Source: Bdellovibrio sp. ZAP7 (GTDB taxonomy: Bacteria > Bdellovibrionota > FAC87 > UBA2466). From it: DNA of 64,000 bases. A program made the translations under genes and the position numbers. Position 1 is the first letter of the stretch. Each line of letters opens with the position of its first letter. The notes below the pieces were generated by a model. The model did not search any database. It saw nothing but the letters and a program-made list of their open reading frames with translations, and was not told the DNA's origin. The stretch is from contig CAMCTJ010000007.1 of the NCBI GenBank assembly GCA_945878405.1, positions 74,779-138,778 on the forward strand, written 5' to 3'. Below, piece after piece: positions 40,257 to 62,414 of this stretch.

Positions 40257-40799
40257 ATGCGCCTGATGGTTCTAGTCGCCCTTTTTGGAGTCTTCCTGTC
40301 TCAAAGTTTTGCAGTGACCTTTCATGAGCCGGTGAGCAAAATCAGTTTTACTTATGACGAAAATCTGTGGGAGGTCGTTCCTACCAAGGCGAATGAAAAA
40401 GAAACACTCGTGAATCTTCAAAGAAAAGTTGCCGACAAAGACGGCGACACGACTTATTTTTCTCGAATCAGTATTGTAAAAGAAGACACAACCCAAGTGA
40501 AAAAAGTTAAATCCAGCAAACTGCCAAAACTCCAAGCTTACCAAATTCATGCAGTCGAATTTTTAAGAAGCCAGCGTTTCGATATTCTTTCTTCTGAAAT
40601 GAAGAAAGTTGAGGGAATTACCGCAGGTGCTTTTGAGATTTTAGCGAATCAAAGAGATTTCGGACTATCATTTCAACAGCTGGGCTTTTTAGATGGAGAT
40701 ACGGCTTACCTAATGACGGCTACGGTCCGAACCAAGAAGCTTGGTGAATACAAAGTTGAGCTGGAAAAAATGTTTCAATCGGTTCGGCTTGCTCCGTAA
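40257..40799 (+). CDS. Secreted hypothetical protein
   Basis: 180 aa. Signal peptide MRLMVLVALFGVFLSQSFA. Its 3' end overlaps a convergent gene. Confidence 0.35.
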   Translation: MRLMVLVALFGVFLSQSFAVTFHEPVSKISFTYDENLWEVVPTKANEKETLVNLQRKVADKDGDTTYFSRISIVKEDTTQVKKVKSSKLPKLQAYQIHAVEFLRSQRFDILSSEMKKVEGITAGAFEILANQRDFGLSFQQLGFLDGDTAYLMTATVRTKKLGEYKVELEKMFQSVRLAP

Positions 40800-42014
40800 T
40801 CCCAGGAAATCTTCCTGACATTTTAAGTAAGCGCGTAAAGTCTGTTGCAGATGTTGAGCTGGAGAGTAGGATCGTTCCATCTTCTCAGGTCCTTTTTCTC
40901 CCAAGCGTTTTGACAGTTCAGGCTTTTCTAAAATCTCTCGAATAATTTCGGATAATCCCGTTTCGGGATGAAGAGGGACGAGAAGTCCATTTTCCCCAGA
41001 TGTGATGAGATCATTCAAAGCTGGTACATCATAGGCAAGAACGGGAACCCCTAACGCAGAAGCCTCGGCTACCGCCATTCCAAAGCCCTCGGGGCCGCGG
41101 TTGGGTTGGATTAAAGCTTTTGCACTCAAGAGCGCTCTTTGAATATCCAACGAACCCGTTTTTCCCTTAAATAAAACTCGCTGGGTGAGGTTTAACTTCG
41201 CAGTGAGAGCTTGAAGCTCTTCTCGTTGGGGTCCATCTCCAAAAATCCAACACGTCCAAGTGAGATCTCGCAGATGGTTTAAGCAAAGAAGAAGAGAAGC
41301 GATGCCTTTTAAAGACACGAGCCGTGAAGCAACTACTAAAAGATTTTCAGGAGCGTTGCTGAGGGAAAGGACGGCATGTTTTCTGACCAATACTGGGTTG
41401 TAGATAGGGACTATTTGGTTTTCTGAGTACCCGTCTGATTTTAAGCATTTTTCCATGTAAGGGCTAATAGCACCTATCACGGGAAAGCGCTTGAGCGCTT
41501 GTTTTTTTCGGTAGAATTCAAAGAGCGCGTGGGCTCGATGAAAAACACTTTTAAAATGCCCGAGACAACCTTCTTGTTGATGAACTTTTAAACAGGACCA
41601 ACCGCTTTTAAATTGGCAGACGCCGCCTCCCTGGGGAAAAAAACGTTGGCTCGAAGGACAAGTCGGAGCAACGGTGTGCGCAGTGAGAAGACAAGGATAA
41701 AGCCGAGAGATAAATCGCATGATTCGCGCATCGAACTGATCTATCAAATGAATCACATCGGGATCGATTTCGCGGAGTGTGTGCTTTAGTTTTCTCTTAA
41801 CTTGAAAAACTTTCCAAGGAGAACTCAAAGAATTGATTTCGGAAAGCCCGGGCAACGTAAATGAAGCGTCGCAGGCCGGTAAAGCGCCCACTAAATGATC
41901 TGCTAGAAAAAAAGTTTGGTGGCTGCTGGACCGCAGCAGCGTGTTGGTATCACGGACGATTCGTTCTTGTCCGTATGCATCACCCAAAGTGGGACTCAAA
42001 AACAAAATTCTCAT
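40710..42014 (-). CDS. Glycosyltransferase family 1 (GT4-type)
   Basis: ORF 40710-42038. Likely start MRILFLSP. C-terminal 'EGFGMAVAEASALGVPVLAYDVPALNDLI..GENGLLV' is the GT-B E-x7-E sugar-donor motif. Confidence 0.7.
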   Translation of the reverse strand: MRILFLSPTLGDAYGQERIVRDTNTLLRSSSHQTFFLADHLVGALPACDASFTLPGLSEINSLSSPWKVFQVKRKLKHTLREIDPDVIHLIDQFDARIMRFISRLYPCLLTAHTVAPTCPSSQRFFPQGGGVCQFKSGWSCLKVHQQEGCLGHFKSVFHRAHALFEFYRKKQALKRFPVIGAISPYMEKCLKSDGYSENQIVPIYNPVLVRKHAVLSLSNAPENLLVVASRLVSLKGIASLLLCLNHLRDLTWTCWIFGDGPQREELQALTAKLNLTQRVLFKGKTGSLDIQRALLSAKALIQPNRGPEGFGMAVAEASALGVPVLAYDVPALNDLITSGENGLLVPLHPETGLSEIIREILEKPELSKRLGEKGPEKMERSYSPAQHLQQTLRAYLKCQEDFLGLRSKPNRLKHFFQLNFVFTKLLGSDRSRH

Positions 42015-42024
42015 GTTAGAATAA

Positions 42025-43269
42025 GTGTACCACCTCATGATTCAAACAAAAGATTCAGTTTTAGTTTTGCGGGTCTCCCGCCTAGGGAGAATTCCACCTG
42101 CTTTATTCTCAACGGAGTTGATCCAGGAATCTGGACTGCCTACACTCGTCGTTGAGTTTGGGAATCTCAAAGAACAACAAAAAATCGTCAAAGAGAAAAT
42201 TACTAAACTTCGCATCGATGCCCCTTGGGCAAAGTGGCTTCCCAAAAAAGCACAGTTCCCCGCAATGACTGCCTGGACTCTCTTGAAACTTTCCTTCCTG
42301 TTTATGACTCGGGGAAGGCCCAAGATTTTAATTGCTCACGGATTGGTTGAGCAATTTGTTTCCTGGGTGCTTTCAAAGTTGTTTTGGGTGCCTGTGGTTA
42401 TTCACGCTCACGAAATTTATAATCCAGAAGATGTTCAAGGCCCCTTTAGTCAGTTTCTTCTAAGAAGGGAAAAATCAGTCTTTCGGTCTTCAGCTTTTTC
42501 CATTTTCCCTGAAAAAAAACGAGCGCAGATCTATCGAGAGCGGTATCAATTCAACAGTCCAATTTTTATTTCGGCCAATGCCCCCAGAATGGTTCCTCCT
42601 CCCAAGCCAAGAGATTTAAGAAAAGCTTATCAGTTAAGCTCCGGAAGCATGATTATGGGTTATATCGGTGGCATTGGGCCTACCAATCTTTTTGAAATAG
42701 CGATTCAAGCGTTGAGTTTTAATCCTTCAGTTGTATTTTTAGTTTGGGGCTGGGGTGAGCGAGATTATCTTGATCAATTGAATTCATTAGCTCATTGCTT
42801 GGGAGTCTCGGAGCGTTTTATTCATTTAGGGCAACTCAGCGACGAAAAATTAGAAACTCTGGCTGGCTGTGATTTTAGTTACTGCATGTACCAGACAAAT
42901 CTTCTTCGAGCTCAACACGAAGCCACTGCTTCGAACAAGTTTTTTGAAGCGATGGCAGCAGGCATTCCCAGCCTGATTTCATCGCACCCTGATTTTTACC
43001 AATTCAATCGAAAGCATCCCGTCGGCATCTGTGCTCCTAGCCCTACTACAGAAGGGGTAAGCGCCGCTATGAAGGCTTTGGTTGAAAACCCAGTGCTGCG
43101 AAAGAATCTGGGGAAGAATGGTCGAAAACTTTTTGAATCTCAATTCAACTACGAGCAACAGTTTTTCAAGCCTGCTCAAGCTTATCAGGACCTGTACTTT
43201 GGCTATCCTGAGATTTGGTCTTTCAACGAAGTCTACCTGCCTCCCGAAGAGCTTCCCAAAGCCGCCTAG
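42025..43269 (+). CDS. Glycosyltransferase family 1-like
   Basis: 414 aa. C-terminal 'NKFFEAMAAGIPSLIS' resembles the GT-B donor-binding helix. Divergent from the previous GT. Confidence 0.55.
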   Translation: MYHLMIQTKDSVLVLRVSRLGRIPPALFSTELIQESGLPTLVVEFGNLKEQQKIVKEKITKLRIDAPWAKWLPKKAQFPAMTAWTLLKLSFLFMTRGRPKILIAHGLVEQFVSWVLSKLFWVPVVIHAHEIYNPEDVQGPFSQFLLRREKSVFRSSAFSIFPEKKRAQIYRERYQFNSPIFISANAPRMVPPPKPRDLRKAYQLSSGSMIMGYIGGIGPTNLFEIAIQALSFNPSVVFLVWGWGERDYLDQLNSLAHCLGVSERFIHLGQLSDEKLETLAGCDFSYCMYQTNLLRAQHEATASNKFFEAMAAGIPSLISSHPDFYQFNRKHPVGICAPSPTTEGVSAAMKALVENPVLRKNLGKNGRKLFESQFNYEQQFFKPAQAYQDLYFGYPEIWSFNEVYLPPEELPKAA

Positions 43270-43375
43270 TTTCGTATCTCCCCAAAATCTGTTAAGTCTG
43301 TCTGCATAACCCAGGGATAAAAGGCCCCCCAAAAAGGGACCTGCTAAAAAACCCAATAATATAGGCTGGTTGTGT

Positions 43376-43993
43376 GTGTTTACGGGGATAGTACAAGAAG
43401 TCGGTCAAGTGAAGGCCATTAAGGCTCTGAAGGCTGGTTTGAGTTTAGAGATCAGCTGCCAAATGGGCTCTCTCGAATTAGGTGAGAGTATTGCCGTGGA
43501 TGGAGTCTGTCTGACCGTGACCGAAGCCCACCCCCAGGCATTCTCCTGTGAGCTCTCTCCAGAGACCTTGGCCCTGACTTTAGCAAACCAGTACCAAGTC
43601 GGATCTCCTGTAAATTTAGAACGAGCCCTCGCGCTTGGGGATCGCATGGGGGGCCATTGGGTCACTGGCCATGTGGACACTCTGATTCAGCTGACCAAAA
43701 AAGAAATACTCAAAGAATTCTGGAAACTCGAGTTTTCGAAAGTGCCTGATGCTGTTTTGAATCATTTGGTGCATAAAGGAAGCATTGCTCTCAACGGAGT
43801 GAGTTTGACGTTAAATGCCGTCTCGCCTTTGGGTTTTGAAGTGATGATCATTCCGCATACTTTGGAAAAAACGAATTTAAAACTCCTTGAAGAGGGCGAT
43901 TCGGTGAACGTGGAAGTCGACTGGATGAGTAAGCTCATCGTCCAAACCGTTGATCGAATCATGAAAGGGAAATATGAACCCACACTGGCTTAA
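43376..43993 (+). CDS. ribE: Riboflavin synthase alpha subunit
   Basis: The GTG at 43376 gives the canonical '[10 protein letters not shown]'. Two lumazine-binding repeats. The ORF track's TTG at 43370 would add Cys-Val. Confidence 0.85.
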
Positions 43994-45182
43994 AATTGAA
44001 GCAGCTTTGGAAGATCTTCGTCAGGGAAAAATGATCATTCTCGTTGACGATGAAGATCGCGAAAATGAAGGCGACCTGGTCATGGCTGCTGAAAAAGTAA
44101 CTGAGCAGGCCATTAATTTTATGGCGAAGCACGGACGAGGTCTGATTTGCCTTACCATGACAGGAAAAGATCTCGATCGCATGAAAATTCCCATGATGGT
44201 GGAAAAAAATGGGACGCGAATGGGAACTGCTTTTACGGCTTCTATTGAAGCCGCTACGGGTGTGACGACTGGTATTTCTGCAGCCGATCGCGCACGGACC
44301 ATTCAAGTGGCAGTTTCTCCAAACTCTGGTCCATCCGACCTCGTGATGCCGGGGCATATTTTTCCGTTGAGAGCCAGGGACGGAGGGGTTCTGGTGAGAG
44401 CGGGGCAAACAGAAGGCAGCGTTGATTTAGCGAAGCTCGCGGGCCTTAATCCCAGTGGGGTTATTTGTGAAATCATGAATGACGATGGCACTATGTCTCG
44501 CATGAACGACTTGGTCCCATTTGCAGAACAGCATGGTCTTCGAATCGTGAGTATTGCCGATCTCATTGCTTATCGAATGCAACAGGAATTATTGGTTACG
44601 GAAGTGGCAGCGGCTGAACTTCCCCTCAAACCTTTTGGCGATTTTGAAATTAAAGTATTTGAGAGCAAAATAGACGGCACCCAACACATTGCTTTGGTTC
44701 GTGGAGAAATTAATTCGGAAACCCCTACGCTGGTGCGGGCACATTCGGAGTGTTTAACCGGAGATGCGTTTGGTTCGGCTCGTTGTGATTGCGGAGCTCA
44801 ACTGCAAGCAAGTCTGAAGCAAATCGGCAGAGAGGGCGGCGTGCTTTTATACATGCGGCAAGAAGGAAGAGGCATTGGACTCGCCAATAAAATCAAAGCC
44901 TATGCACTTCAAGATACTGATGGACTGGATACGGTAGAAGCAAATCATAAACTAGGTTTTAAGGCAGACCAGCGCGATTACGGAATTGGAGCGCAGATCC
45001 TCCGGAGTTTAGGGGTTCGGAAAATGCGGCTTCTTACGAATAATCCCAAGAAGATTTACGGGCTCGATGGCTTTGGCATTGAGATAGTAGAGAGAGTTTC
45101 CATTGAAAGTGAGCCGCACTCTGAAAACCTGCACTATCTGATGACGAAAAAAGAAAAAATGGGGCACTGGTTAAAGCTGTAG
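43974..45182 (+). CDS. ribBA: Bifunctional 3,4-dihydroxy-2-butanone-4-phosphate synthase / GTP cyclohydrolase II
   Basis: 402 aa. '[11 protein letters not shown]' (RibB) and '[18 protein letters not shown]' (RibA zinc site). Confidence 0.9.
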
Positions 45183-45194
45183 GAGACGATATTC

Positions 45195-45656
45195 ATGCGA
45201 CGGTTTAATGCAAAAGATAAGAAAGTAACTTTTCCAGTGGCTCTAGTGGTGAGTCGCTTTAATGAAGAAGTCACTTCAAAACTTCTGGAAGGAGCTCATG
45301 CCCGTCTTCAGGAGCTGGGGTTTGACGAAGGGCAAATCACAGTGGTGGATGTACCCGGGGCAGTTGAGATTCCCCTCGCCTTGCAGCGTCTCGCAGGACT
45401 CAAAGAGTTTGATGCTTTGATTGCCTTGGGAGCTGTCATTCGCGGCGAGACGAGCCACTATGATTATGTTTGCAATCTGGTAAGCCAAGGTTGCCAGGAG
45501 ATAAGTCTACAATTCAAATTACCCGTGATTTTCGGAGTGCTCACAACGGAAAATGAGGAACAGGCCTTTGACCGATGTGGGGGAAAACACGGCCACAAAG
45601 GGAAAGATGCGGTAGATGCCGCTTGTGAGATGGTGGCTCTTCTTCGTTCATTGTGA
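45195..45656 (+). CDS. ribH: 6,7-dimethyl-8-ribityllumazine synthase
   Basis: 153 aa. 'FPVALVVSRFNEEVT', 'GAVEIPLA', 'ALGAVIRGETSHYDYV'. Confidence 0.9.
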   Translation: MRRFNAKDKKVTFPVALVVSRFNEEVTSKLLEGAHARLQELGFDEGQITVVDVPGAVEIPLALQRLAGLKEFDALIALGAVIRGETSHYDYVCNLVSQGCQEISLQFKLPVIFGVLTTENEEQAFDRCGGKHGHKGKDAVDAACEMVALLRSL

Positions 45657-45670
45657 AGAAATCTTCACAA
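45651..45670. repeat. 20-bp 8-4-8 palindrome TTGTGAAGaaatCTTCACAA (copy 1), overlapping the ribH stop codon
   Basis: Perfect 8-bp inverted arms. Two further copies at 46084 and 50422, all followed by ...T(n)TCT. Confidence 0.7.
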
Positions 45671-45750
45671 TCTCTGCAAAAACGCATGCGTGAGGCCCCG
45701 TAGATTCGGGCAGGGAGCCTATGTTAAGATGTTTGTATAAGGTGGTACGT

Positions 45751-46083
45751 ATGCGGTTAAGTCTCTCAAGGAAAGCTCTGCGTGGTTTTCTCTGCGCTGT
45801 GGTTGGATTAAACCTAGTTGCTTGCAACGCAACTAAATCATCGTCAGTCAGTTCTCCTTCAGTAATCATTGGCGGGAGTAGCTCTACAAATTCCCAAACG
45901 AGTAGTAGTTCCCAAAGTTCTTCTAGTTCAGGTAGCGGCTCTTCCAGTAATACTCCAGCAGTTGCGAGTGTGGCTCCTGCTTCTCAGGCTCTTCCTCCAC
46001 TCACAGTCTCTGGAATAAAAGTTTCATCCGTCTATTCTGGAATTGAAGCTAGCGGAGTTACGTACAACGGCATGTCAGACTGA
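45751..46083 (+). CDS. Small Ser-rich hypothetical lipoprotein bracketed by palindrome copies 1 and 2
   Basis: ORF 45721-46083. The internal Met gives 'MRLSLSRKALRGFLCAVVGLNLVAC' (lipobox LVAC). The rest is poly-Ser 'SSSTNSQTSSSSQSSSSSGSGSSS'. Confidence 0.35.
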   Translation: MRLSLSRKALRGFLCAVVGLNLVACNATKSSSVSSPSVIIGGSSSTNSQTSSSSQSSSSSGSGSSSNTPAVASVAPASQALPPLTVSGIKVSSVYSGIEASGVTYNGMSD

Positions 46084-46103
46084 TTGTGAAGAAACCTTCA
46101 CAA
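46084..46103. repeat. 20-bp palindrome TTGTGAAGaaacCTTCACAA (copy 2), starting immediately after the stop of the small lipoprotein ORF
   Basis: Same arms as copy 1. The central 4 nt differ by 1. Confidence 0.7.
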
Positions 46104-46154
46104 TGTCTTTATAATCTCTTACGCCTAAGAGCACATTGATTGAAGTATTGAAGC

Positions 46155-47348
46155 TTAGGTGGGCGTCTTTGGTATTAAAGCTTTGGTTTTTTCCCAAAAG
46201 CGATTCAACCCAACTGTCGGGTTTAGCTCACCTTGATAGTAGCGGTACGCGTTTTCGCTAAAAAGCGAATAAGAAGAATCAATTTGAGCAATAGCAGAGC
46301 CGATATCAGTCCACTCGTTGAGAGCTATTCCAAATGAGTAATTTGAAAGAGCTTCCTGCAGGCTAGGTAAAGGAGTCGTGATCACCGGTTTTTTTCGAGA
46401 GCAATAGTAAGCTATTTTGGTGGAAGCTTTCCCGATATGAAAAAGCGTTTGATTCACCATCCAAGAGGAAGGCTGAGGAAAATAAGGAGCAAGGCCGATA
46501 TAACTCTCATCTATTAAATCCACTAAGCCCTTCTCATCTAGAAAATCAAAAGTGAAATGGAGCCCCTGATTTTTTTCAAGGCGTCGAATCCTCTTCAGTA
46601 GTTTCGAAGGGGGTTTAAAATGTGTGTGTACTCTTAAGTAAAATGTTGGCGGGATATTCAAAGCAATTGTGTCGAGCATTTCCTCCAAGTTCCATTTTTC
46701 TAAGTTCCCGCAATAGAGAATCATTTTCCCGGTTTTATTAGGGGAGACGTTTGAGGGGAGAGGAAAGCGCTCTTCTGGAGCTACTGCAATGCAATCAATC
46801 GGTTTTCTCCCAATATTTAGTTCTTTTGAGATTAAATCCTTTCTGTTTTTATCCTGACTCAAAACTAAGACAACGGAAGGTAAGCTAGCGGTTTCTTTTC
46901 GAGCAAGCGCCCTCTCATTAGCGGTTCTTAATTCAGTTCTAAATAAAATATGAAAAGATAAGTAAACTACCGGAACCTTTTTGGGAATCTCCATGCGACT
47001 TAAAAGACTCAACCCAGTGGCATCGCAGGTTACTATCAATGAATAATGGCTTTGATGAATGAGGTCTTTCAGTCGGAAAAAATGAATCACACTCCGCCAA
47101 ATCGTTTTTAATTTCCAGGGGCGCCGAAAACTTTGTTTAAAAGCTGAAGGAATGATTCGCCTCACCAACCATACCCACTCAGCAATTTCTTTTCCTTCGC
47201 CTAGACAATTGGAGCGGCTCGGGCAAACCAGATCAAAAGAGAGGTTGTCCGCTTGGCACCTCTCGACCAGAGAATCACAATTAGGATTGGCTCGCCAATA
47301 GCCGTAGGGATATAAAAAAAGAATCTTTTTTTGAGCGCTCAGGTCCAT
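46155..47348 (-). CDS. Hypothetical protein, possibly GT-B-fold glycosyltransferase-like
   Basis: 397 aa with no strong motif. First of a run of co-oriented, overlapping genes in a glycosyltransferase cluster. Confidence 0.35.
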   Translation of the reverse strand: MDLSAQKKILFLYPYGYWRANPNCDSLVERCQADNLSFDLVCPSRSNCLGEGKEIAEWVWLVRRIIPSAFKQSFRRPWKLKTIWRSVIHFFRLKDLIHQSHYSLIVTCDATGLSLLSRMEIPKKVPVVYLSFHILFRTELRTANERALARKETASLPSVVLVLSQDKNRKDLISKELNIGRKPIDCIAVAPEERFPLPSNVSPNKTGKMILYCGNLEKWNLEEMLDTIALNIPPTFYLRVHTHFKPPSKLLKRIRRLEKNQGLHFTFDFLDEKGLVDLIDESYIGLAPYFPQPSSWMVNQTLFHIGKASTKIAYYCSRKKPVITTPLPSLQEALSNYSFGIALNEWTDIGSAIAQIDSSYSLFSENAYRYYQGELNPTVGLNRFWEKTKALIPKTPT

Positions 47349-48052
47349 TTTTTTAATTTGCCTAACAGTTGTTCGTCGAAGTCCCGATGGGAGCGTCGAA
47401 GCATTTCATGATTGAGATGGAGTCCGAGAGCTTTTTGAGGGGGCCGCCATAAGCTTTCAGAATTTGTGAGGAGTTCTGTTTCATCCCATCCCAAAGCGCA
47501 AAACTCCCAGGACGGACGAATATATGAAGCGAGACCAAATCGCTGTACTGCTTGATTGAGAAGCCTCGGCCCGATCTGGCCCCATTCCAAATGATCCGGT
47601 GAGATCTTAATAGACTCTTCCCAACAATATTTCATAACTGGAGACTGGGGGGGAGTTTTGATGACACAGCTAGCAGTGATTCTATCTGTTTCTGTAGTGA
47701 GTGTTTCGCTCGCAAAAACATATGGGACAGAATCAAAATTCCACTCAGCGAGACAAAAAACATCCGTGTCTATCCAAACCCCCCCTTTTTTTAAAAGAAG
47801 AGCATAACGAAAGATATTAGAAAAAGCCGAAAAGCTTCCCTTTCCGGGCCCCTTTTTATATTGGAAAATGTTTTCTTTGGGAAGGATCTCGGTGGCATCC
47901 TTAATAACGACGCCCTCCGGCACCGCTTCTACCAACTCATAGCAATAAAGCTCAACCTGGTGATGGTATTTCACAAAGCTTTTTAATGCCTCTGTGTGTA
48001 GGGGTTTTAATTGCGGGCCAACCCATAAAGTCTGTAAAGCTGTAGCTGACAT
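47339..48052 (-). CDS. DXD-motif glycosyltransferase (sugar-binding region, GT32-like)
   Basis: 237 aa. 'KKGGVWIDTDVFCL' matches the Gly_transf_sug DxD region. 10-nt overlap with the downstream gene. Confidence 0.5.
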   Translation of the reverse strand: MSATALQTLWVGPQLKPLHTEALKSFVKYHHQVELYCYELVEAVPEGVVIKDATEILPKENIFQYKKGPGKGSFSAFSNIFRYALLLKKGGVWIDTDVFCLAEWNFDSVPYVFASETLTTETDRITASCVIKTPPQSPVMKYCWEESIKISPDHLEWGQIGPRLLNQAVQRFGLASYIRPSWEFCALGWDETELLTNSESLWRPPQKALGLHLNHEMLRRSHRDFDEQLLGKLKKWT

Positions 48053-48084
48053 AAAACAGACTTTATCCTACACTTAGAACTTCG

Positions 48085-48200
48085 ATGAAAAAACTCATAA
48101 TTCAAATACCCTGTTGGAATGAGGCGGAGACGGTTAGTGAGACCATTTTAGCGCTCCCCACCAGGGTAGAGGGTTTTGATTCAGTTGAGGTCTTAGTCAT
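48085..48200 (+). pseudogene. Remnant of a GT2 polyprenol-phosphate glycosyltransferase (N-terminal ~38 codons only)
   Basis: 'MKKLIIQIPCWNEAETVSETILALPTRVEGFDSVEVLVI' aligns with 'LKLIIQIPCFNEEKSLPLALAALPREVPGFETVEWLVVDDGS' of the intact GT2 at 60795-61736. Homology is lost after about 38 codons. Confidence 0.5.
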
Positions 48201-48205
48201 TATTT

Positions 48206-49174
48206 TTAAAACGACTCGGGCTTTAGCGCTGTCTTATTTCCGATATGCAATAAAGCCAAAACTCCTCCCCAAATTCGCCCCAACAAGAGCTGGCCTTGAA
48301 GAGCAAGCTTGAATTTACCAGGGCCGCGACAAGGTCTAAAGGCCATCCAGATTAAAATCGGGTTTTTTAAAATAGCGTAAACATTCGGCCAAATAACTTT
48401 GTGAAAAATGGAGTTTTTCCCTGATAAGTAGAGTTCCATTTCAGCGTCAGAACGCCCCTGCCACCAGGCTCTTCTTCTAAAGTAGCCTTGTGTTAATCTA
48501 TCAGTGCTAATCTGATGAAAACCTTTTATTGCGGGGTCATAAAAAAACCTAGCTCCCAGAGCTTCTAGTTTAAGTAGAGTCAGAGTTTCATCATTACTTC
48601 TCAAGTTGCCCGTTTGTCGGTTAATACGTTCGTCAAAGCCACCGATTTTTCTTAGTAAATGAGCTGGGAGAACCAAATTCGCAGAACAAAGTGCCTTAGC
48701 TTGCACAGGAATAAAATCAGGTCCTAACTGAATAGAGCTGAGATAGTTTTCAAGAAAAGGGCCATACCAACGGGGAAGAGGACTGTGAAAGTTTAGTTGT
48801 ACTTTTCCGCCCAAACAATCCGTTGACGTATCGAGAGTTAAATATCTTTCAAAAATTCGTTCTAGCCATTGGGGATGAGGTAACGTGTCATCATCAAGAA
48901 AGGCGATCAAACTACCTGCAGCCGCTTTAAACCCTCTGTTTCTCGAAAAATTTGAGCCCACTCTCAATTCTTTAAGCATTCTCAGGTTCGGCAATCGGCC
49001 TTTCCATTTTTCCAAAACATCTTGAGTGTTATCGGAGGAAGCATTGTTGACTATGATAGCCTCCCAAAACTGAGAGGGTAAACTTTGAGAGGCTAGCTCC
49101 ATTAAAAGTCTTTCCAGTTGGTTTTGTCGATCCCTCGTGGGAACGACTACTGAAATGAAACGATCGGAAATCAC
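48206..49174 (-). CDS. Glycosyltransferase family 2
   Basis: 322 aa. 'ISVVVPTRDRQNQLERLL', 'AFLDDDTLPHPQWL' (DxD). Confidence 0.7.
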   Translation of the reverse strand: MISDRFISVVVPTRDRQNQLERLLMELASQSLPSQFWEAIIVNNASSDNTQDVLEKWKGRLPNLRMLKELRVGSNFSRNRGFKAAAGSLIAFLDDDTLPHPQWLERIFERYLTLDTSTDCLGGKVQLNFHSPLPRWYGPFLENYLSSIQLGPDFIPVQAKALCSANLVLPAHLLRKIGGFDERINRQTGNLRSNDETLTLLKLEALGARFFYDPAIKGFHQISTDRLTQGYFRRRAWWQGRSDAEMELYLSGKNSIFHKVIWPNVYAILKNPILIWMAFRPCRGPGKFKLALQGQLLLGRIWGGVLALLHIGNKTALKPESF

Positions 49175-50310
49175 ACCATCTTCCCCTTGGTTTGGAGTGA
49201 AGACTTTAAGAGCTCAAACAGCCGATTTCCCAATTGCCCCCATTCGTAACTAGCAAGTTCTTTGGAGTCGGGGTGGCTCCATTTATCTTGGTCCATTAAT
49301 CGATTTCTAAAAAGCTCGAGCGGGGCGATATGAAGTCCCTTTAGATTCTGGTTAAATCCCCGAACTCCAAAGGGAGTAGTGAGAACAGCGAGCCCATTTC
49401 CCAAACATTCTATGAGCTTTACATTACTTCCGGAACCCGAACAAACGGGGTTCAGCGCCACGTCACTTTCCTTAAAAAACGGGAATAAATGATTCTGAAC
49501 ACCGCAGGAAATGATGTTTTCCGGAAGAGACTCTGATAATTGAACATTTCCAACAACGAGTAATGACCATCGATGTTTTATTTCTGGATGAACAAAAAGA
49601 TGGGCGAGGGCTTGCAACCCCCTTTGATTGTGAATTGAGTCGCTAGCAACATACAACGCAATACGGTGGTTTTCAGCAATGCCCCATGCTTTTTTAAACT
49701 TTGGGGTGCTCTCTCTCGAATTGAGATGTTCTGTTGAGGTGTTGTGAAATCCATTGGGGAGGCTCTGTATCAATTTTCCGGGCCTTAGTTTTTCAAAAAT
49801 AAGTTTATCTTCTTCTGAAACACAAACGACTAAATCTGCTTCTTTAATTGCTCTTTGTTCATTTCTTTTTAAAAGTGCAACTGCCCGAGGTGAAAAACCG
49901 TCGTGATACATGGCTTCGTGGTTATGTGCTGAGAGCACTTTGACTTTACCTGTGACACGCTTTGCAATTTGCCAGAGAAAGGGAGACTCAGAAATGACGA
50001 TATCAAAAGTTTCTTTTAAAGGGCGTGGAAGCGGCAGAAAAGTATTGAGACTGCTGGTAAGTGAATAAGAGGGGAAACCCAAACGTGAACTCAGGCCATC
50101 TAACCATTGTATTTGATTTTGTGACTCATAATGGCTACAGCGAGGAACAAGCTCTTGGGATTCAAGAGGTGAGAGCCTGGGTGAGATAAAAGACCAAACG
50201 GTGACTTGAGCCCCCTGATGGGCCAATTGCTCTGCCAAACTACGAATTCGGGTCACCGCTCCATTGAAATTATTGATAAGACGATGGTGAGTGAGAACCA
50301 GAACCTTCAT
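49171..50310 (-). CDS. Glycosyltransferase family 1 (GT4-type)
   Basis: 379 aa. 'MKVLVLTHHRLINNFNGAVTRIRSLAEQL' and C-terminal GT-B donor region. Confidence 0.65.
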   Translation of the reverse strand: MKVLVLTHHRLINNFNGAVTRIRSLAEQLAHQGAQVTVWSFISPRLSPLESQELVPRCSHYESQNQIQWLDGLSSRLGFPSYSLTSSLNTFLPLPRPLKETFDIVISESPFLWQIAKRVTGKVKVLSAHNHEAMYHDGFSPRAVALLKRNEQRAIKEADLVVCVSEEDKLIFEKLRPGKLIQSLPNGFHNTSTEHLNSRESTPKFKKAWGIAENHRIALYVASDSIHNQRGLQALAHLFVHPEIKHRWSLLVVGNVQLSESLPENIISCGVQNHLFPFFKESDVALNPVCSGSGSNVKLIECLGNGLAVLTTPFGVRGFNQNLKGLHIAPLELFRNRLMDQDKWSHPDSKELASYEWGQLGNRLFELLKSSLQTKGKMV

Positions 50311-50421
50311 GAAAGCCTATTTCAAGTCGTAAAACATAAAAAGTAAAGTTTGATATATTGGATGCCCATCACCCATGATCTCAGATTAAAAAAGTGAGCG
50401 GTCTTGGTTAGCCCCAATCAA

Positions 50422-50441
50422 TTGTGAAGATATCTTCACAA
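50422..50441. repeat. 20-bp palindrome TTGTGAAGatatCTTCACAA (copy 3), in the divergent intergenic region about 180 nt upstream of the giant ORF
   Basis: Same 8-bp arms as copies 1 and 2. Sits between the GT cluster start (50310, minus strand) and the giant gene start (50621, plus strand). Confidence 0.7.
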
Positions 50442-50620
50442 TTTCTCCACAATGTTCAAGCTGAGCCCCCAATAATTGCGTCAAGTTAAAATGATACCCT
50501 GAAAGGTAAGGCGGAACGTATGTGTATTTGGAAACCACATTTAGCTTCGATGAGGAATCTTGCGCCACGCGTAAACATCAAGAGTAAAAGGAAAAAAACC
50601 GAAAAGGAGCGTGAAACCAA

Positions 50621-53600
50621 GTGAAACGCTTCCTTCCATTTCATGCTGTCCTTTTATTCTTCGCGGTTTGCTTTGCTTCTTTTGCAGAAGAAAAAGGTCG
50701 GCTGAGTGCGAGTGATTTGGCGCCTGGTGCATCGGATGGTTTCGTCTTTAGTAATTCCGCAACTCCAGATACTCAGTGCGATGAGGGCAGTGGGGGTGAC
50801 TGCTGCGATGGAACTCTTCAAGAAACGTTTGCCGGGGTAACGAAATTCACAACAAGTTACTGCAAAGGCCGATATGCCGGAAAAGCAAGCTCCACTCGTT
50901 ACGGAATTCGGTTTGATACGTTTCACGCTTTTCGAAGTATCCTCAACGAAAATCAGTTAGTACTTGTGAATTCGAATGCTGGATGCACGAGCGGCGACTG
51001 CTGCCCCACCGGCGGAAGTAAGACCTATAACTGGCTCCTAGTAAGAGCGAGACCTTTTGATAATTACAGCTCGCCGATGGATATGTCGCTGGATACGACT
51101 TACGTTGGGGGAACCATCACCTATGACCATTCGCAAACTGTAAAGTGGTCCGGATCTTCAAAATTTAGTTTAAATGCCCTAGATGCTGAAACGAAGACTA
51201 ACTCCTCTGCTTATGGAGCCCGGCTTTTTGGAACTTCTACCTGCAGCGCGGGAGAATTTAAAGCAAGCGCAGTCACAGATTTTACTGCCGCCAATAGGCC
51301 TCTTGGAAATTATGGGTACTGGCTCTTTGGTAAGAACGTAGCTTTCTACCGACAGGTAAGTGCAGATCCTGTCATTGCCGTTGCTTTTCCAAGGCCAGCG
51401 CAGAGTCTGAGTTCTTCTGGAGTAATGGCTAGTAAGAACAAACAAGTTTTTACTGGAAATTATACCGGCTTCACGACGAGGGGAGTTCAGGTTCAAAGAA
51501 ATGTCATGCTGATTCCTGATGTCGCGGGAACAACTTTTACGATTTCGGAAGTAGCAGATCCCTCCAATCCCTTCTCAGTCAGCACTCTGGGGACTTTAGC
51601 TTGCACGAATTTAGATGAGCCGAGCCAAGGTTTCTGCCGAGGCACCCTGACCCTGACTGCAGTTCCTGGATTTTCAGGAAAAGCCACTTGCATGATGGCT
51701 TACGATATCGGTAATCGGGATCTTGTTTTTTGTAGCGCGCAGAATCCCTCCGCTGATAGCAATCACCAACGAGCGCTCGTCACCATTGCGGCAGTTTCAT
51801 CGCACAAGAGCGTTCTTGCGATGACTGCGTCGCCAGTACACTTAGATGCCAATACCTCCAGTGGGCAAATGTGTGCAACCGTGGAAAATATGACGTCGCG
51901 AGCAGTCGACACATTAACGCTTACTGGAAACTTAAGTGGTGACTTCTCGGCGGTTTCTCTCTCAGGTTCTGTCACAGCGCCGTTCAGTGGCCTTACTGGT
52001 TCAGTGTCAGCTTGTGGCACTTCTTTGCCAGCTTTTTCAAAATGTAAATTGTGTTCGAATGTTACTTTAACGACTCAAAAAGTAAGTGCCCACGCTTTAA
52101 CCCTGACTTTTGGAGATACACCGAGTTCGACAAAAAGCATGTCAGACACAGCGGTTGCGACTCGTGGGGTTTCGAACCTTCAATATGAAGTGGGGAAAGT
52201 AACCCAGAACAAGACTCCCTCGGTTAAAGCCGTCTTTGCCAATGGCACTACCCAAAACATTGATGCAATTAAGGAAAAGCTACAGTGTTCAGGAGTTTGT
52301 ACTTCAGCCACTGGAACCCGATCGCTTGCCTATACCTTGGAAGGCCTTGAGAGCGCTCCCGCAGTGGGCGATGTGCTCGTAAGCACTGAAGAAGAGCTTT
52401 GTTACAACGAAGAAGACGACGACAACGACGGAACCACCGACTGCCAAGATAACGACTGCGATTCCGAAAGAGCAGATATCAGTCACACCGATATTCTATG
52501 TAATTATAATAGCGAGCGAGATTGTGCAGACTCTTTTGATAATGATCGAGATGGGAATACCGATTGTGATGATGGAGATTGTGCCCTTGCATGTAATGTT
52601 TGGGAAACCGCTTGTAACAATAGTCTCGACGATGATTCTGACGGAAACACAGATTGTGCCGATTCAGATTGCAACGGACAAGTAAATGCTGACTTTAGAT
52701 ACTGTGGTCTCGAGACTCACTCCTATGGTGGGTGTGTGCTCGATGGAGTTGACGATGACAGCGACGGTTATACCGATTGCGCCGATCCGGATTGTTACGG
52801 CGGTTATGTTGGTTGGGGACCCTATGGAGGAACTTGTGACTCTGGAACTGAAACTAATTGCAGCGATGGATACGATTTCGACGGCGATGGTTTAACTGAC
52901 GCCAATGATCCAGATTGTGTGGTCTGCCTTGATTCTGACGGCGATACGTTTGGTGACGGTTGCTCTGCTGGCTCCGATTGCGATGATAACTTCAGCGACG
53001 CTTCCAACAATTGCTCCGACAACGTGGTTTTAGATTTGCGTTTCGATACAGATACGAGCGATTCCTCGAACTATCATCACGCGGTTGGAGCTAATGGAAG
53101 CCCCGCTATTTCCACGAGCAACGCGAAGTTTGGTGGAGGGAGTGCAAACTTTAATGGTAACGGCGACAGAATCGATATTTCCTCAAGCACAGATTTTGAT
53201 CTGGAAGACGGGGACTACACTATTGAGTTCTGGACTTTTGTACGAAGCGTAGCAGGGTCAGATGCTGCTAGATTGTTTACTTTAGAAAATAACGATGAGG
53301 CGTGGGGAATAATTCTTGCCAACGATGGTAGCAACAGTCTTTACGTGAATCATTATGGAATTGGTGAGGGTTTTGAAGTCAGTGGCGCACTCAACGGGAA
53401 ATTGAACCAGTGGGTGCATCTGGCCTTGGTGAAGAACGGCACAACTAGAACTCTTTATATTGATGGGGTAGCTGGAGGCTCGACCAACTCAAGAGTGTTG
53501 CCGGCTAATGCTGCGCAATTATCAATTGGTGGCAGTACCATTTGGTATCCTTATACACAGTTTGACGGTCTTATCGACGAACTGAAAATCACCAAAGGCT

Positions 53601-56600
53601 ATGCACGCTACACCACAAACTTCACACCTCCCACTTGCGCATCGATGAGCGAATCCGATGCCGATAGCGATGGTATCTGTAATAGCGCGGATACTGAAAG
53701 CTGCAGTGATTCGATTGATAACAACGGTAATGGCCAGACGGATGAAGAATGTTCTTCTTGCAACAGTAGCGATTCCTCCTCGGCAATTTGTAACCAAACT
53801 GGCACTTGCTGGAATCAAAGCGGTTGTCAGTGTGGAGTCTATGATTCAGTTAGCTACGGGCAATCCTGTACGATGGGCGGTGGCGGATCAACCGAAAACT
53901 GTTCTGATTCATTAGATAATGATTCCGATGCTTCAACCGATTGCCAAGATGCGGATTGTGATGGGGTGTCAGGCGGTAGCGGTATCTGTCACAACAATTC
54001 TGAAACTTGTAGTGATAGCTTTGATAATAATGGCAATGGCCAGACAGATGAAAATTGTTATCCCTGCATGGACAACGACGGCGATGGATATGGTTATTAT
54101 TGTGCGATCGGTGAAGATTGCGACGATTGGGCTAATTGGATAAACCCCGGTGCTTCAGAAATCTGGAATGGGTACGATGACAACTGTAACGGCCAGGCCG
54201 ATGAAGGACTTGGCAATCCCTTTGACTGGGACGGAGATGGGTGGCTATCTTACATGGGAGATTGGTTTGATTGCAATGATGCCGATGGGTCCATAAACCC
54301 CGGTGCTTCCGAAACCTGCAGCGACTCAGTCGACAACAACTGCGATGGCCAGACAGATGAAAATTGTTATCCCTGCATGGACTACGACGGTGACGGGTAT
54401 GGTTACTACTGTGTTCCCGGCGAAGATTGTCAGTGGAATATGGGAGAGGGGAATTCCGCTATTCACCCCGGAGCTGCAGATGACCAAAGCGATGGTACCG
54501 ACAATGATTGCGACGGTCAGATCGATGAAGATTATACAGTTCCGTGCACAGATTCGGACACTGATGGCGTGTGCAGTGGATCTGACTGTGACGACAGCAA
54601 CGCAATCTTCAGCACAGATTGCAGCAGCAACGTGGTTTTAGATTTGCATTTTAATAGCGACTTCAGTGATTCTTCGGGTCACAATCACAATGGGACTCCA
54701 AATGGAAATGCGGAAATCAGCTCTGATGTTGCCAAGTTCGGGGGAGGCAGTGCGCATTTTGATGGAAGTTCTTGGTTAACAGTAACGGCGTCTTCAGCTC
54801 TCGCTGTGGGAACGGGTGATTTTACCTTGGAAGCCTGGGCTTATCCGACACAAGTTAATGACTTTAGCGATTTGGCTGCCGTACTAGATACACGGCCCTA
54901 TGGCGCGGGAACTGGCTTACTGATTTGGTTGGATTCTGCTTCTGGAAAATGGGTAGGGTATACCTCTACAAACGGAAATGAGGATCAACTTGTTATTAGT
55001 TCCCCTACAACAGCAACCCTCAATGCGTGGACTCATTTAGCATTGGTGCGTTCCGGAACAAGTCTTAGGTTCTTTGTAAATGGAGAACTTGCCGGAACCG
55101 AAACTTTAAATGCTAACTGGAATTTTACTCAGGACACTACGGCACCGGGTTTTGTGGGAACTGCAGCCGATGCCCCTGGATACTTCCGCAACTTCTATGG
55201 CTATATCGATTCAGTAAAAATCACCAAAGGCGCAGCGCTCTACACAACCACCTTCACGCCCGCTACTTGCGCATCGATGAGCGAATCTGATGTCGATAGC
55301 GATGGCATCTGTGATAGCGCGGATACTGAAAGCTGCAGTGATTCAATTGATAACGATGGCGATAGTCAGACAGATGAAGAATGTTCTTCTTGCAACAGTA
55401 GCGATTCCTCCTCGGCAATTTGTAACCAAACTGGCACTTGCTGGAATCAAAGCGGTTGTCAGTGTGGAGTCTTTGATTCAGTTAGCTACGGGCAATCCTG
55501 TACGATGGGCGGTGGCGGATCAACCGAAAACTGTTCTGATTCAGTAGATAATGATTCCGATGCTTCAACCGATTGCCAAGATGCGGATTGTGATGGGGTG
55601 TCAGGCGGTAGCGGTATCTGTCACTACAGTTCAGAAACGTGCAGTGATAGCTTTGATAATAATGGCAATGGTCAAACAGATGAGAACTGCAATTCTGACG
55701 TAAGCGGCGGCGATCCGTACTTTGATGATGTGAGAGTGCTTGTTCATGCGGACGAAAACATTACGAATCATGCAAACGGGGGAACGCCCACAGTAACTTT
55801 CGTTGGCGGAGCGAATTACTCGACCTCCGACAAGAAGTTTGGATCAGCTTCCGCGCAGTTCTCACCGCAGATAACCCAGTACTGCGATGGGTGGTGGGGT
55901 TGTTATGACCAGTTAGTAGTTCCCAATTATTTAAAGATAAACGACACCTCAAGAACGATTCCTGCGAATTACACTGCTGAGTTCTGGGTAAAACCCGATT
56001 CCGATTGGAGTGGCGCAGTCTCAAGAAGATTATATCAACGAGGCGTTAGCGATATGGGGATGTATGGTATCGATGTTTATTACAATAACAATCGAATCTA
56101 TTTTAGTTTTTACAATAGCAATTATTACTATGATGGGTCTGGTGAGGGGGGGTGCGATCAATCGGGTAGCACTTATGGAGATGTTGGTACTTTGAGTGCG
56201 AACACTTGGTACCACGTAGCGATTGTGAGAGAGGGTAGTGCGATCAGAATTTATTTCAACGGAAACCGAATTGGGACGGGCACACTAAGCGCTAATTCCT
56301 ACACGTATTGGGGCACAATTCCCTCATGTACTGCCACAGAAGCTATCACACTTAGCGATTGGGGAAATGTAAACGAAGGTTTCGGAGTATCTTTTGACTA
56401 CGGTGACAATATTTACGATAACGTCACCGCTAAGTTTGACGAAATCCGAATCAGCAACAGAGCTCGTTACTCAGATACAAGCTTTACTCTTCCCACTTCG
56501 CCGTATCCCAATACCAAGCAAGCGGTAGCTCCCGAAATCAGTATTTCGCCCTCGAGCTACACGTTAACAGCTGGCACAGCGATGACAGCGATTGTTCCAA

Positions 56601-59299: not shown

Positions 59300-59317
59300 T
59301 TCCGCAAGTACAGATAC

Positions 59318-60805
59318 TCAGTGTGTCCGCGTCCACAAACAAAGATCCTGAGCAAACCCTTCCTTGAGGTAATTGCGTTCCACAGTGCTCAGTTTTGTAA
59401 AAAAGAAGTCATCAATTGCAACGTAGAGGATGTTTTCTTCCTCAAGGCGATTCTTTTCAAACAAGCGACTCTCCTGTGCTCTACTGCCAGACACAGGAAA
59501 CCCGGGGAGAACCTGATCCACTTCATCCATGCTTCGGGGAGACCGCAGCCATTGCGCTTGGGAGTCTTCGTTGAACACATAAGCAGGGCATCGACTAAAC
59601 CAAACGTAAAAGACAGGATCGGTTCTCCTAAGCTTGTATAAGGCTGTGCTCAAAACTTCAATTTGTTCTCTTCTCTTTTGGGTTTCGTTTCTCATTTCTA
59701 AGGGCAGTGCCAAAGCGGTATTGAGGAGTGCTACCGCTAAAAGCCCCCCCAGGACGACGGGTTCAAATTTTCCCCAGGGAATCTCAAGTAGTATCTGAAA
59801 AACAAAAACCACCATCAGGGGGAGAATCAGCAACAGAGCATATTCGTGAATGGGGCTCAGGAGAAACAATCCACAGCTGAGAGCTGCAATTAACAATAAG
59901 TATCTCAGAGGTGTTCGCGTTTTTTTATTGAGGATTGCCGAGACGATACTCCCCACGAAGAGGGCCAGAAACAACAACAAAAGAACAGGGTCGCTCTTCC
60001 AGAGCTTAAAAAACAAGTCGGCAACGACTTCCGTTTTTTCAACCACTCGTTTTGAGATGAGGTTGAGGTTCATCAAGAACATATGATCAATCGCAGCGTA
60101 AAGGGCTCCTTGAATAGCCAGCACAAGCCCGATAATACCCAAAGAGATTATCTCTCCCCAAACCAGTGAAAACCGTCTTTTGATTGGTACCTTAAATCCT
60201 AAAGCCACTTGATCAGCTATTAGGAATCCTAAATTTAAAGGCAAAAACTTAGGGTGAAACCCAAGCGCAAGCCCCAAACACATTCCGGCGAGCAGTCTTT
60301 TTTCCCGAGATAGAAGAAATAGAAAAAGGACACATAAGAAACCAACCGTGATATCCGGGCGTGTCTGAAATGCAGTTCCTTGAACTATCCTGAGACTCAG
60401 AAAGAGGGCCCCGGCCACAGTCCCCTTGGCTATCTTTCGAGAGCCCTGAGTTAACGTCGAAACTGTGATGCCTACCATCATGGCAGTTACTCCTGCCATC
60501 AGAAGGGGAAACAAACGTAAATAAGTCAGGGTTTCAGCAGACTCAACCGCTCCGGGCTTTATCCAGAGCAACAAAGCATTCAGCCACGCAAAGACAGGTC
60601 CGTGGTGTTCAAAAAAGTCTTTGAAAATAATTTTGCCTCTAAAAACATTCCAAGCAATATGCGTGTGCTGGAGGTCGTCCTGGCCAAAAGAATAGGCAAA
60701 GGCTCTCGCTCCCAAGGCATATAAGTGGTACCCGAACACCAAGACAGATCCGAGGATCAAAAGTACTCCCCACCACTCAACCGTTTTTTTCTTTTTAGAA
60801 TCCAT
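59318..60805 (-). CDS. Polytopic membrane glycosyltransferase of the PMT/ArnT (GT39/GT83-like) family (candidate)
   Basis: ORF 59318-60868. Likely start 'MDSKKKK'. About 12 TM helices. The first loop 'YHLYALGARAFAYSFGQDDLQH' resembles the 'LRLYGLG..DE' loop of GT39/83 enzymes. Overlaps the upstream GT2 by 11 nt. Confidence 0.5.
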   Translation of the reverse strand: MDSKKKKTVEWWGVLLILGSVLVFGYHLYALGARAFAYSFGQDDLQHTHIAWNVFRGKIIFKDFFEHHGPVFAWLNALLLWIKPGAVESAETLTYLRLFPLLMAGVTAMMVGITVSTLTQGSRKIAKGTVAGALFLSLRIVQGTAFQTRPDITVGFLCVLFLFLLSREKRLLAGMCLGLALGFHPKFLPLNLGFLIADQVALGFKVPIKRRFSLVWGEIISLGIIGLVLAIQGALYAAIDHMFLMNLNLISKRVVEKTEVVADLFFKLWKSDPVLLLLFLALFVGSIVSAILNKKTRTPLRYLLLIAALSCGLFLLSPIHEYALLLILPLMVVFVFQILLEIPWGKFEPVVLGGLLAVALLNTALALPLEMRNETQKRREQIEVLSTALYKLRRTDPVFYVWFSRCPAYVFNEDSQAQWLRSPRSMDEVDQVLPGFPVSGSRAQESRLFEKNRLEEENILYVAIDDFFFTKLSTVERNYLKEGFAQDLCLWTRTH

Positions 60806-61736: not shown

Positions 61737-61766
61737 TGTAAAATAGTTTAGGTCAAAAGAAGAAAT

Positions 61767-62414
61767 ATGAAAATAAAATTGTCGCGCGGCGCCCAGCAAC
61801 AAGGAGTGGTTTTTGGAAATGCCTATCCAAAGTACACTTCAAAAAATCCCCTTGTGAAATGGCTCATGAAGAACTTCGAATCTCATATCGAGGATCTCTT
61901 AAAACAAATTTCTCCTGAGACGATTCATGAAGTCGGCTGCGGGGAAGGGTTTTGGGTTCTTCATTGGAGAAAAAAGGGATTTAAGATCAGAGGCTCGGAT
62001 TTCTCTTCGCTCGTTATCGATATTGCAAAAAAAAATGCTGAGCAAATGGGAGCAGATCCAAACCTGTTCTCTGTTCGCTCTATTGAAGAACTCAATACCA
62101 CAGAGGATAGCGCTGAGTGTATCTTATGCTTAGAAGTGTTAGAGCACTTAGAAAAGCCCCAATTCGCTCTTGAAAAATTAAAGGCCCTTGAAGCTCGGCA
62201 CTACGTTTTCAGTGTGCCTCAAGAGCCGGTGTGGCGAATATTAAATGTTCTTCGAGGCAAGTACCTTACGAGCTTTGGAAATACCCCTGGACATCTCCAA
62301 CACTGGTCTCGCGGTCAATTTGTTAAGTTTATTTCTGAGCATTTCAGAGTAGAAAAAACGGTGGGGCCGTTTCCCTGGACTGTTGTCTTGTGTTCGCCAA
62401 AGTCACAAACCTAA
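61767..62414 (+). CDS. Class I SAM-dependent methyltransferase
   Basis: 215 aa. 'IHEVGCGEGFWVLH' (motif I), 'ILCLEVLEHLEKP' (motif III-like). Confidence 0.6.
   Translation: MKIKLSRGAQQQGVVFGNAYPKYTSKNPLVKWLMKNFESHIEDLLKQISPETIHEVGCGEGFWVLHWRKKGFKIRGSDFSSLVIDIAKKNAEQMGADPNLFSVRSIEELNTTEDSAECILCLEVLEHLEKPQFALEKLKALEARHYVFSVPQEPVWRILNVLRGKYLTSFGNTPGHLQHWSRGQFVKFISEHFRVEKTVGPFPWTVVLCSPKSQT

Follow-up and report, generated by a model that had tools for sequence, protein, structure and literature searches.

The 64,000-nucleotide stretch of DNA analysed here (contig CAMCTJ010000007.1 of the Bdellovibrio sp. ZAP7 assembly GCA_945878405.1, hereafter the window) carries a cluster of glycosyltransferase (GT) genes at 46155-50310, a giant gene to the right of it and a further module of three genes beyond the giant gene (Table 1). 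The subject of this report is an open reading frame (ORF) of 75 amino acids (aa) that lies inside the cluster on the opposite strand and is very probably what remains of a GT2 family gene. Four intact genes, all on the minus strand, were counted in the cluster, encoding proteins of 397, 237, 322 and 379 aa, where a preliminary description of the locus had counted five. According to the same description these genes overlap one another, which holds within two pairs, the 397-aa and 237-aa genes (10 bp, 47339-47348) and the 322-aa and 379-aa genes (4 bp, 49171-49174), whereas a gap of 153 bp (48052-48206) separates the two pairs, between the gene for the DXD-motif GT (DXD-GT) and the 322-aa GT2 gene. 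The GT2-like fragment fills this gap. It had been described as encoding the N-terminal ~38 aa of a GT2 at 48085-48200, and it is indeed an N-terminal GT2 remnant, but its reading frame runs on to 48312 and the last 36 codons are homologous to the C-terminus of the parent gene identified below. The first 39 residues, MKKLIIQIPCWNEAETVSETILALPTRVEGFDSVEVLVI, retain strand beta1, the nucleotide loop 'IPCWNE', helix alpha1 and strand beta2 and stop just ahead of the DDGS motif. The 322-aa GT2 gene is convergent with the remnant, and its 3' end shares 107 bp (48206-48312) with the 3' remnant, so that it is dual-coding with the tail of the 75-aa ORF.

Table 1. Features in and around the glycosyltransferase cluster (positions in the window).
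Feature	Position	Strand	Description and basis
75-aa ORF, GT2 remnant	48085-48312	+	Residues 1-39 plus 216-251 of the 251-aa GT2; protein alignment
5' remnant, codons 1-39 of the putative ancestral 251-aa Dpm1/GtrB-like GT2	48085-48201	+	Orthologue alignment
3' remnant, last 36 codons plus stop codon, in frame	48202-48312	+	Aligns to residues 216-251 of all orthologues
Deletion junction, GTCATT / ATTTTTAAAACG	48201-48202	+	blastn against L072; junction sequences; protein alignment
Divergent spacer, 32 bp, from remnant start codon to DXD-GT start codon	48053-48084		30-32 bp in every relative examined
397-aa GT-like protein	46155-47348	-	Intact; last gene of the conserved cluster; ORF listing, Pfam
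237-aa DXD glycosyltransferase (PF04488)	47339-48052	-	Intact; ORF listing, Pfam; dN/dS 0.12-0.26
322-aa GT2 (PF00535)	48206-49174	-	Intact; ORF listing, Pfam; dN/dS 0.13 vs L008
379-aa GT4/GT1 (Glyco_transf_4 / Glycos_transf_1)	49171-50310	-	Intact; first gene of the conserved cluster; dN/dS 0.27 vs L008
Collinear cluster block	46150-50351		94-97% nucleotide identity to relatives
Lineage-specific block, 8,974 bp	50352-59325	+	Replaces a 1,870-bp segment with the 602-aa epimerase/GT2 fusion gene of relatives
Giant gene, 2892 aa	50621-59299	+	LamG_3, MopE and fn3 domains
516-aa GT-C-like membrane protein (weak GT87 match)	59318-60868	-	Three-gene module with the 313-aa GT2 and the methyltransferase
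313-aa polyprenyl-phosphate-type GT2	60795-61736	-	Intact; two C-terminal transmembrane helices; common to relatives
Methyltransferase	61767-62414	+	Member of the trio, which is present in relatives without the giant gene

Relatives of the cluster were recovered with the DXD-GT as probe from protein homologues, JGI metagenome contigs and GTDB species genomes (loci are referred to as L001 and so on). The probe yielded a clade of uncultured, Bdellovibrionaceae-like freshwater metagenome-assembled genomes (MAGs). An intact antisense GT2 gene lies between the genes for the 322-aa GT2 and the DXD-GT in L006, L008, L010, L011, L012, L019, L020, L022, L060/L061, L062-L064 and L069-L072, and the DXD-GT is 57-94% identical to that of the window across these gene-bearing loci. 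The antisense gene encodes exactly 251 aa in 15 loci and 254 aa in L060/L061. It starts 30-32 bp from the start codon of the DXD-GT gene, a divergent spacer that is invariant in the loci examined, and at its other end it shares 74-107 bp with the 3' end of the 322-aa gene in most loci measured (9213-9313 in L008). This convergent dual-coding overlap is kept in relatives down to 57% protein identity, and synonymous divergence (dS) is lowered there. Where it is intact, the 251-aa gene is under purifying selection, with ratios of nonsynonymous to synonymous divergence (dN/dS) for codons 40-215 of 0.05-0.11 in six close pairs and 0.07 in one distant pair, and the intact allele forms a cluster of 12 members at >=90% identity that is found on many contigs. 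The 322-aa gene seems disrupted in L071 and L072, but only the gene calls differ there and the ORFs are full length.

The 75-aa ORF corresponds to the two ends of this 251-aa gene, in agreement with its earlier description as a GT2 pseudogene remnant. Its 5' part is 97% identical at the amino acid level to residues 1-39 of the intact orthologues in L006, L008, L062 and L072, and comparison of the fragment with the 251-aa orthologues gave E-values of about 1e-22; for the 3' part, a tblastn match of 75% identity (E=8e-12) was obtained within the identical remnant of L065. DNA identity to the window reaches 94-98% in the closest relatives, and in blastn alignments positions 4192-6243 of L072 correspond to 46150-48201 of the window (97.0%) and positions 6771-8921 to 48201-50351 (97.4%). 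L072, L069 and L062 all show 94-97% nucleotide identity on each side of a 527/528-bp gap, and relative to L072 the window lacks these 527/528 bp, that is 176 codons or residues 40-215, in frame. The junction is blunt and leaves no more than 1 bp of microhomology or ambiguity. A deletion mediated by microhomology or repeats was considered and rejected, as no repeat flanks the junction, and none was found at the other breakpoints either. The same scar is present in L001 (GCA_964203895.1, contig CAXNOE010000015.1), which belongs to the same species and is 99.96% identical to the window over 20.7 kb, and in L065 (ENA ERZ18669848), which is 97.6% identical and has the same riboflavin (rib) operon and giant gene as flanks. 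The three scar-bearing assemblies come from different samples and otherwise differ by 0.04-2.4%. With an intact syntenic orthologue, collinear flanks and purifying selection on the intact gene, we conclude with high confidence from these comparisons that the fragment is a unitary pseudogene that arose by internal deletion. What had been proposed as a rearrangement of this locus is a simple internal deletion.

The deleted segment bears D40-D41-G-S, N-T-D91-A-D93-N-Q95, P-D-P-T-S-G-F-R and an Arg-rich loop near residue 200. The 251-aa products carry a precomputed PF00535 assignment, and in the PDB they match the Pyrococcus DPMS (5mlz, E=1.9e-13) and GtrB (5ekp, E=3e-6). AglJ, PpgS, dolichyl-phosphate hexose transferase and ArnC were the top NCBIfam matches, none of which came near its equivalog cutoff. 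These similarities place the parent in the Dpm1/GtrB/ArnC-like subgroup of GT2, and it shares with DPMS/Dpm1, GtrB, ArnC, PpgS and AglJ the GT-A domain, the N-terminal 'IP-x-(Y/W)-NE' loop, DDGS, DAD-x-Q and the Arg-rich acceptor loop. In the Pyrococcus enzyme (PfDPMS), Asp39 binds the base, 89-DADLQH-94, to which the DAD-N-Q motif of the parent corresponds, holds the metal and the diphosphate, and the acceptor loop closes the active site (PMC5526996). The parent lacks transmembrane (TM) helices, as does human type-II DPM1 (PMC5526996), and a partner similar to DPM2 or DPM3 was not identified for it. The parent enzyme probably transferred a sugar onto undecaprenyl phosphate (Und-P) for a side-branch or modification step of a glycan of the lipopolysaccharide (LPS)/O-antigen type. 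Unlike the intact polyprenyl-phosphate GT2s, the window copy is without any catalytic motif, nothing but residues 1-39 and 216-251 being left: residues 40-215, including D40-D41 and D91-A-D93-N-Q95 of the orthologues, are gone. Because DDGS, DAD-N-Q and the acceptor loop are all deleted, the product of the 75-aa ORF could not be an active glycosyltransferase. Consistent with this, a Pfam scan gave no match for the 75-aa ORF, so that it contains no complete GT-A catalytic domain, and only its 39 N-terminal residues align to members of the family.

The ancestral core of the cluster would thus have comprised five genes, for the GT4, the 322-aa GT2, the opposite-strand 251-aa GT2, the DXD-GT and the 397-aa protein. 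One blunt, in-frame deletion of 528 bp removed residues 40-215 with DDGS, DAD-N-Q, PDPTSGFR and the Arg-rich acceptor loop, leaving the 75-aa ORF. What survives of the gene is, at one end, 107 bp in which the C-terminus of the 322-aa GT2 is encoded as well and, at the other, the 117 bp that immediately precede the DXD-GT gene. The non-overlapping antisense insert between the same-strand gene pairs would have been cut from about 680 to 153 bp, which may permit their co-transcription. The loss of the parent may have simplified or changed the glycan, along with the loss of neighbouring accessory genes. The remnant itself is presumably without function. The remainder of the cluster shows no sign of decay, because the dN/dS values of its four surviving genes (0.13-0.27) resemble those of orthologue pairs elsewhere; relaxed selection on these genes was rejected for the same values, which are similar to those of pairs among the relatives. 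For the 397-aa protein, a Pfam scan found no family at the cutoff and only a sub-threshold match to Glyco_transf_4; it is 57-97% identical to its orthologues, with dN/dS of 0.16-0.21. The homology of the cluster block to the relatives ends 5 bp past the stop codon of the 397-aa gene on one side and 41 bp ahead of the GT4 start codon on the other. Within the block, gene histories are mosaic: dS between L008 and L019 is 0.035 for the 397-aa genes and 0.81 for the adjacent DXD-GT genes, which therefore indicates recombination between lineages inside the cluster.

In a second group of loci (L002-L005, L009 and L021), whose DXD-GT is 69% identical to that of the window, the antisense gene is wholly absent and a 321-aa GT2 gene overlaps the DXD-GT gene by 4 bp. 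In neighbour-joining (NJ) trees, the L002/L021 lineage is sister to the window clade, inside a group whose other members have the gene. Because this gene-less lineage is nested among gene-bearing ones, two independent losses of the 251-aa gene would be a reasonable, although not a strong, conclusion. Both gene-less lineages are also without the adjacent 293-aa GT2, 363-aa GT1 and epimerase genes, which is suggestive, and no more than suggestive, of one functional module formed by the 251-aa GT2, the epimerase/GT2 fusion, the 293-aa GT2 and the 363-aa GT1. Beside its cluster, the window lacks the epimerase/GT2 fusion together with the 293-aa GT2, the 363-aa GT1 and the ABC transporter, and the loss of the parent may have been part of a wider remodelling of the locus. 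No remnants of the 293-aa GT2 or of the 602/603-aa epimerase/GT2 were found in the window at E<=1 beyond weak generic GT2 similarity, and none of the replaced genes has left a detectable remnant there.

According to the preliminary description, the fragment matches the intact GT2 at 60795-61736 beyond the giant gene and would be a truncated duplicate of it, left by duplication or rearrangement within one glycosylation island around the giant gene. The match as such was confirmed: a window-wide TBLASTN search with the 60795-61802 product returned one non-self match, 48091-48201 (+), with 54% identity over 37 aa and E=1.3e-7, well below the limit of 1e-3 beyond which the match was to be dismissed. 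DNA similarity between the two is confined to a stretch of 32 nucleotides (28/32, 88%), and it also fits a duplication that the fragment and the 60795 GT2 gene each start about 30 bp from a divergently oriented neighbour. However, the identity of the fragment is 97% with the orthologous 251-aa gene and 62-70% with many heterologous family members, so that the local gene, at 54%, is by no means its closest relative. The 251-aa parent, which is intact at the same position in relatives, is 42-43% identical to the 60795 product over 228 aa, whereas the latter belongs to a strongly conserved family, with hundreds of members that are 65-70% identical to it in Betaproteobacteria, Methylococcales, Desulfobulbus and others; a close homologue (P0104) is named 'DPM/DPG synthase family glycosyltransferase' by NCBI. 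Because the two proteins of the locus share 42% identity, compared with about 70% for the 60795 product across phyla, their split is ancient. Moreover, both genes are intact about 5 kb apart in L069-L072, and the fragment is therefore neither a record of duplication nor a link across the giant gene. The 60795 GT2 is instead an old paralogue of the deleted gene, both being long-standing co-residents of the locus, and an origin of the fragment from it is very improbable and already contradicted by these comparisons. The two belong to the same GT2 subfamily and both start with (M/L)K(K)LIIQIPC, but the 60795 product has two C-terminal TM helices, which are not seen in the 251-aa sequences, and has a GT-C protein and a methyltransferase as partners. 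Redundancy, by which the 251-aa gene would have become dispensable once a 60795-type GT2 was acquired, was rejected in view of the presence of both intact genes in L069-L072. Searches started from the fragment alone were less informative: a word-indexed homology search with the 41-aa fragment gave no candidates, and an exhaustive HMMER search of representatives, in which the 39-aa peptide served as query, retrieved 454 proteins (E<=1e-3), all short N-terminal matches with a best non-self identity of 74%, which confirm membership of the GT2 family but did not reveal the parent gene.

It could also be argued that the 75-aa ORF or its DNA has been retained because it works, be it as a small protein composed of an N-terminal Rossmann element and a C-terminal amphipathic tail, as promoter or 5' region of the DXD-GT and 397-aa genes, or as an antisense RNA. 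The in-frame deletion preserved the start codon, the stop codon and the 32-bp spacer, and the window and L065 have the ORF in identical form although their genomes diverge by 2.4%. In the relatives, moreover, the promoter of the DXD-GT gene pair would have to sit in the first codons of the antisense gene, as the spacer measures only 32 bp, and a promoter role of the 117-bp 5' remnant for the DXD-GT can be put forward as a speculation. On the other hand, an in-frame outcome has a chance of one in three, the tail is constrained in any case by the overlapping 322-aa gene, and the ORF is without a Pfam domain. A scan of the remnant for sigma-70 promoters found none on the minus strand and a single plus-strand match at chance level, and the L002 lineage dropped the whole segment, its genes overlapping by 4 bp, which argues that the segment is dispensable. 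We therefore consider retention for a function improbable. An artefact, in the form of a chance ORF or of an intact gene collapsed in assembly, is barely conceivable as the source of the fragment: nothing beyond the metagenome-derived source assembly speaks for it, whereas the E-values to the orthologues and the identical junction in three divergent assemblies of different samples speak against it.

Loss of a GT2 gene by internal deletion within a changing locus remains the reading that we favour, and four points have to be set against it. One public (ENA) gene call lists the 75-aa ORF as a gene (P0151), while the NCBI assembly annotates nothing at 48085-48312. The NJ trees, which draw on one or two proteins, lack bootstrap support and concern genes with mosaic histories. 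The co-loss with the accessory genes is seen in two lineages only, and the NCBIfam equivalog matches of the parent are all far below cutoff.

The setting of the locus in the relatives was found in two configurations. In configuration A (L062-L064), the order is 290-aa GT2, 363-aa GT1, 293-aa GT2, 397-aa protein, DXD-GT, 251-aa GT2, 322-aa GT2, 379-aa GT, 608-aa epimerase/GT2, a 335/359-aa protein, sigma54 activator, DUF218, KdtA, GT9 and ArgRS. Configuration B (L069-L072 and a 26-kb JGI contig) has in addition a GT-C (494 aa), a 313-aa GT2 and a methyltransferase between the epimerase/GT2 and the 335-359-aa gene. Genes for a Wzm/Wzt-like ABC transporter lie beyond the 363-aa GT1 in L008, L060 and L072. 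Because KdtA, the GT9 heptosyltransferase and the ABC transporter adjoin the locus in relatives, it is probably a plastic glycan locus of the LPS/O-antigen type. Exactly three structural differences distinguish the window from configuration B, namely the deletion, the block with the giant gene, and the flank to the left of 46150, where a small lipoprotein-like ORF and the rib operon occupy the place that the 293-aa GT2, the 363-aa GT1 and the transporter have in configuration B.

These comparisons also bear on the proposal of one evolving glycosylation island around the giant gene, which can be kept loosely, for a plastic glycan locus, whereas the same GTs occur in relatives without the giant gene. 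Because the relatives carry the GT genes, including the trio of methyltransferase, GT2 and GT-C, without it, the lineage-specific giant gene is a late arrival in a pre-existing glycan locus and not the nucleus of an island. Its product is hypervariable, the first ~880 aa being 76.6% identical between the window and L065 (6298-8931 in L065) compared with 96-100% for the neighbouring genes, and the gene contains internal DNA repeats, for example 300 nucleotides at 90% identity (53572 and 55204) and several pairs of 130-190 nucleotides about 2.63 kb apart. The GC content is 0.43 in the cluster and 0.477 in the giant gene, ranging from 0.43 to 0.48 across 45.7-62.4 kb against 0.451 for the window, and GC at third codon positions (GC3) of this region lies inside the gene-to-gene range of the window. 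A compositionally distinct or horizontally acquired island at 45.7-62.4 kb was thus rejected, the region being unremarkable in GC and GC3, and no integrase or transposase ORF was seen in Pfam scans of the proteins of this region. For the 60795 GT2, the mechanically called ORF starts at TTG 61802 and would overlap the start of the methyltransferase gene at 61767; because homologues begin with M/V/L-KLIIQIPC, the true start is probably TTG 61736, 30 bp from the methyltransferase gene. In a more distant relative, L068, whose 313-aa GT2 is 77% identical to the 60795 product, the trio is followed by an ORF (5069-5623, -) that is convergent to the GT-C gene and has MopE-like repeats resembling residues 747-798 and 1094-1254 of the giant protein (43-66% identity), and a loose, recurrent link of the trio with large repeat proteins is possible.

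Gene remnants and deletions occur in bacterial O-antigen, capsule and LPS clusters. The locus described here resembles such surface-polysaccharide loci in the deletion of a GT gene within a conserved cluster, in its variable flanks, in its mosaic recombination and in its position, in the relatives, beside LPS core genes and an ABC transporter, and differs in that it belongs to an uncultured freshwater MAG lineage and in that the lost gene was antisense with a dual-coding overlap. Such events are well known, and the present case, ordinary gene loss from a variable locus for surface sugars, is a new example that will hold no surprise for geneticists of surface polysaccharides. What it adds is a dated, directional case of glycan-locus erosion in natural populations of an uncultured, predator-like freshwater lineage, for which intact, internally deleted and fully excised alleles are all at hand for comparison. 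Annotations should mark 48085-48312 as the pseudogene remnant of a GT2 and describe the 46.2-50.3 kb cluster as the four-gene survivor of a larger locus, probably of the LPS/O-antigen type.

The flanks of the cluster contain a 22-nucleotide palindrome, ATTGTGAAGA-NN-TCTTCACAAT, of which the 64-kb window has exactly three copies (0.02 expected), at 45650-45671, 46083-46104 and 50421-50442. They overlap the stop codon of ribH and that of a 120-aa ORF and lie upstream of the giant gene, respectively; the copy at the 120-aa ORF is 46 bp outside the left homology breakpoint and the copy at the giant gene 70 bp outside the right one. Of 65 fetched loci, only those of the two further assemblies that carry the deleted allele have the palindrome, which may serve as an operator, form a hairpin or be a site of recombination. 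One may further imagine the scar as the trace of a coordinated surface switch, in which a module for an Und-P-sugar side branch was lost in two lineages, here coinciding with the arrival of the 2892-aa surface protein, with the palindrome as a possible recombination or regulatory site for cassette exchange, but we regard this scenario as rather unlikely.

The 120-aa ORF (45721-46083, +) is flanked by two copies of the palindrome and has a lipoprotein-like signal (...GLNLVAC) and a Ser-rich tail; a Pfam scan gave no match for it, and NCBI calls a 73-aa minus-strand ORF at this place instead. Of the nine mismatches that separate the window from GCA_964203895.1, five fall here within 34 bp (45756-45789). 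Further to the left, the riboflavin operon in the 40710-45656 region, with a ribE-like gene (43370-43993), ribBA (43974-45182) and ribH (45195-45656), lies between two GT1-type genes (40710-42038, -; 42025-43269, +) and the four-gene GT cluster, whereas in relatives with the intact locus rib genes are absent within 10 kb of the cluster.

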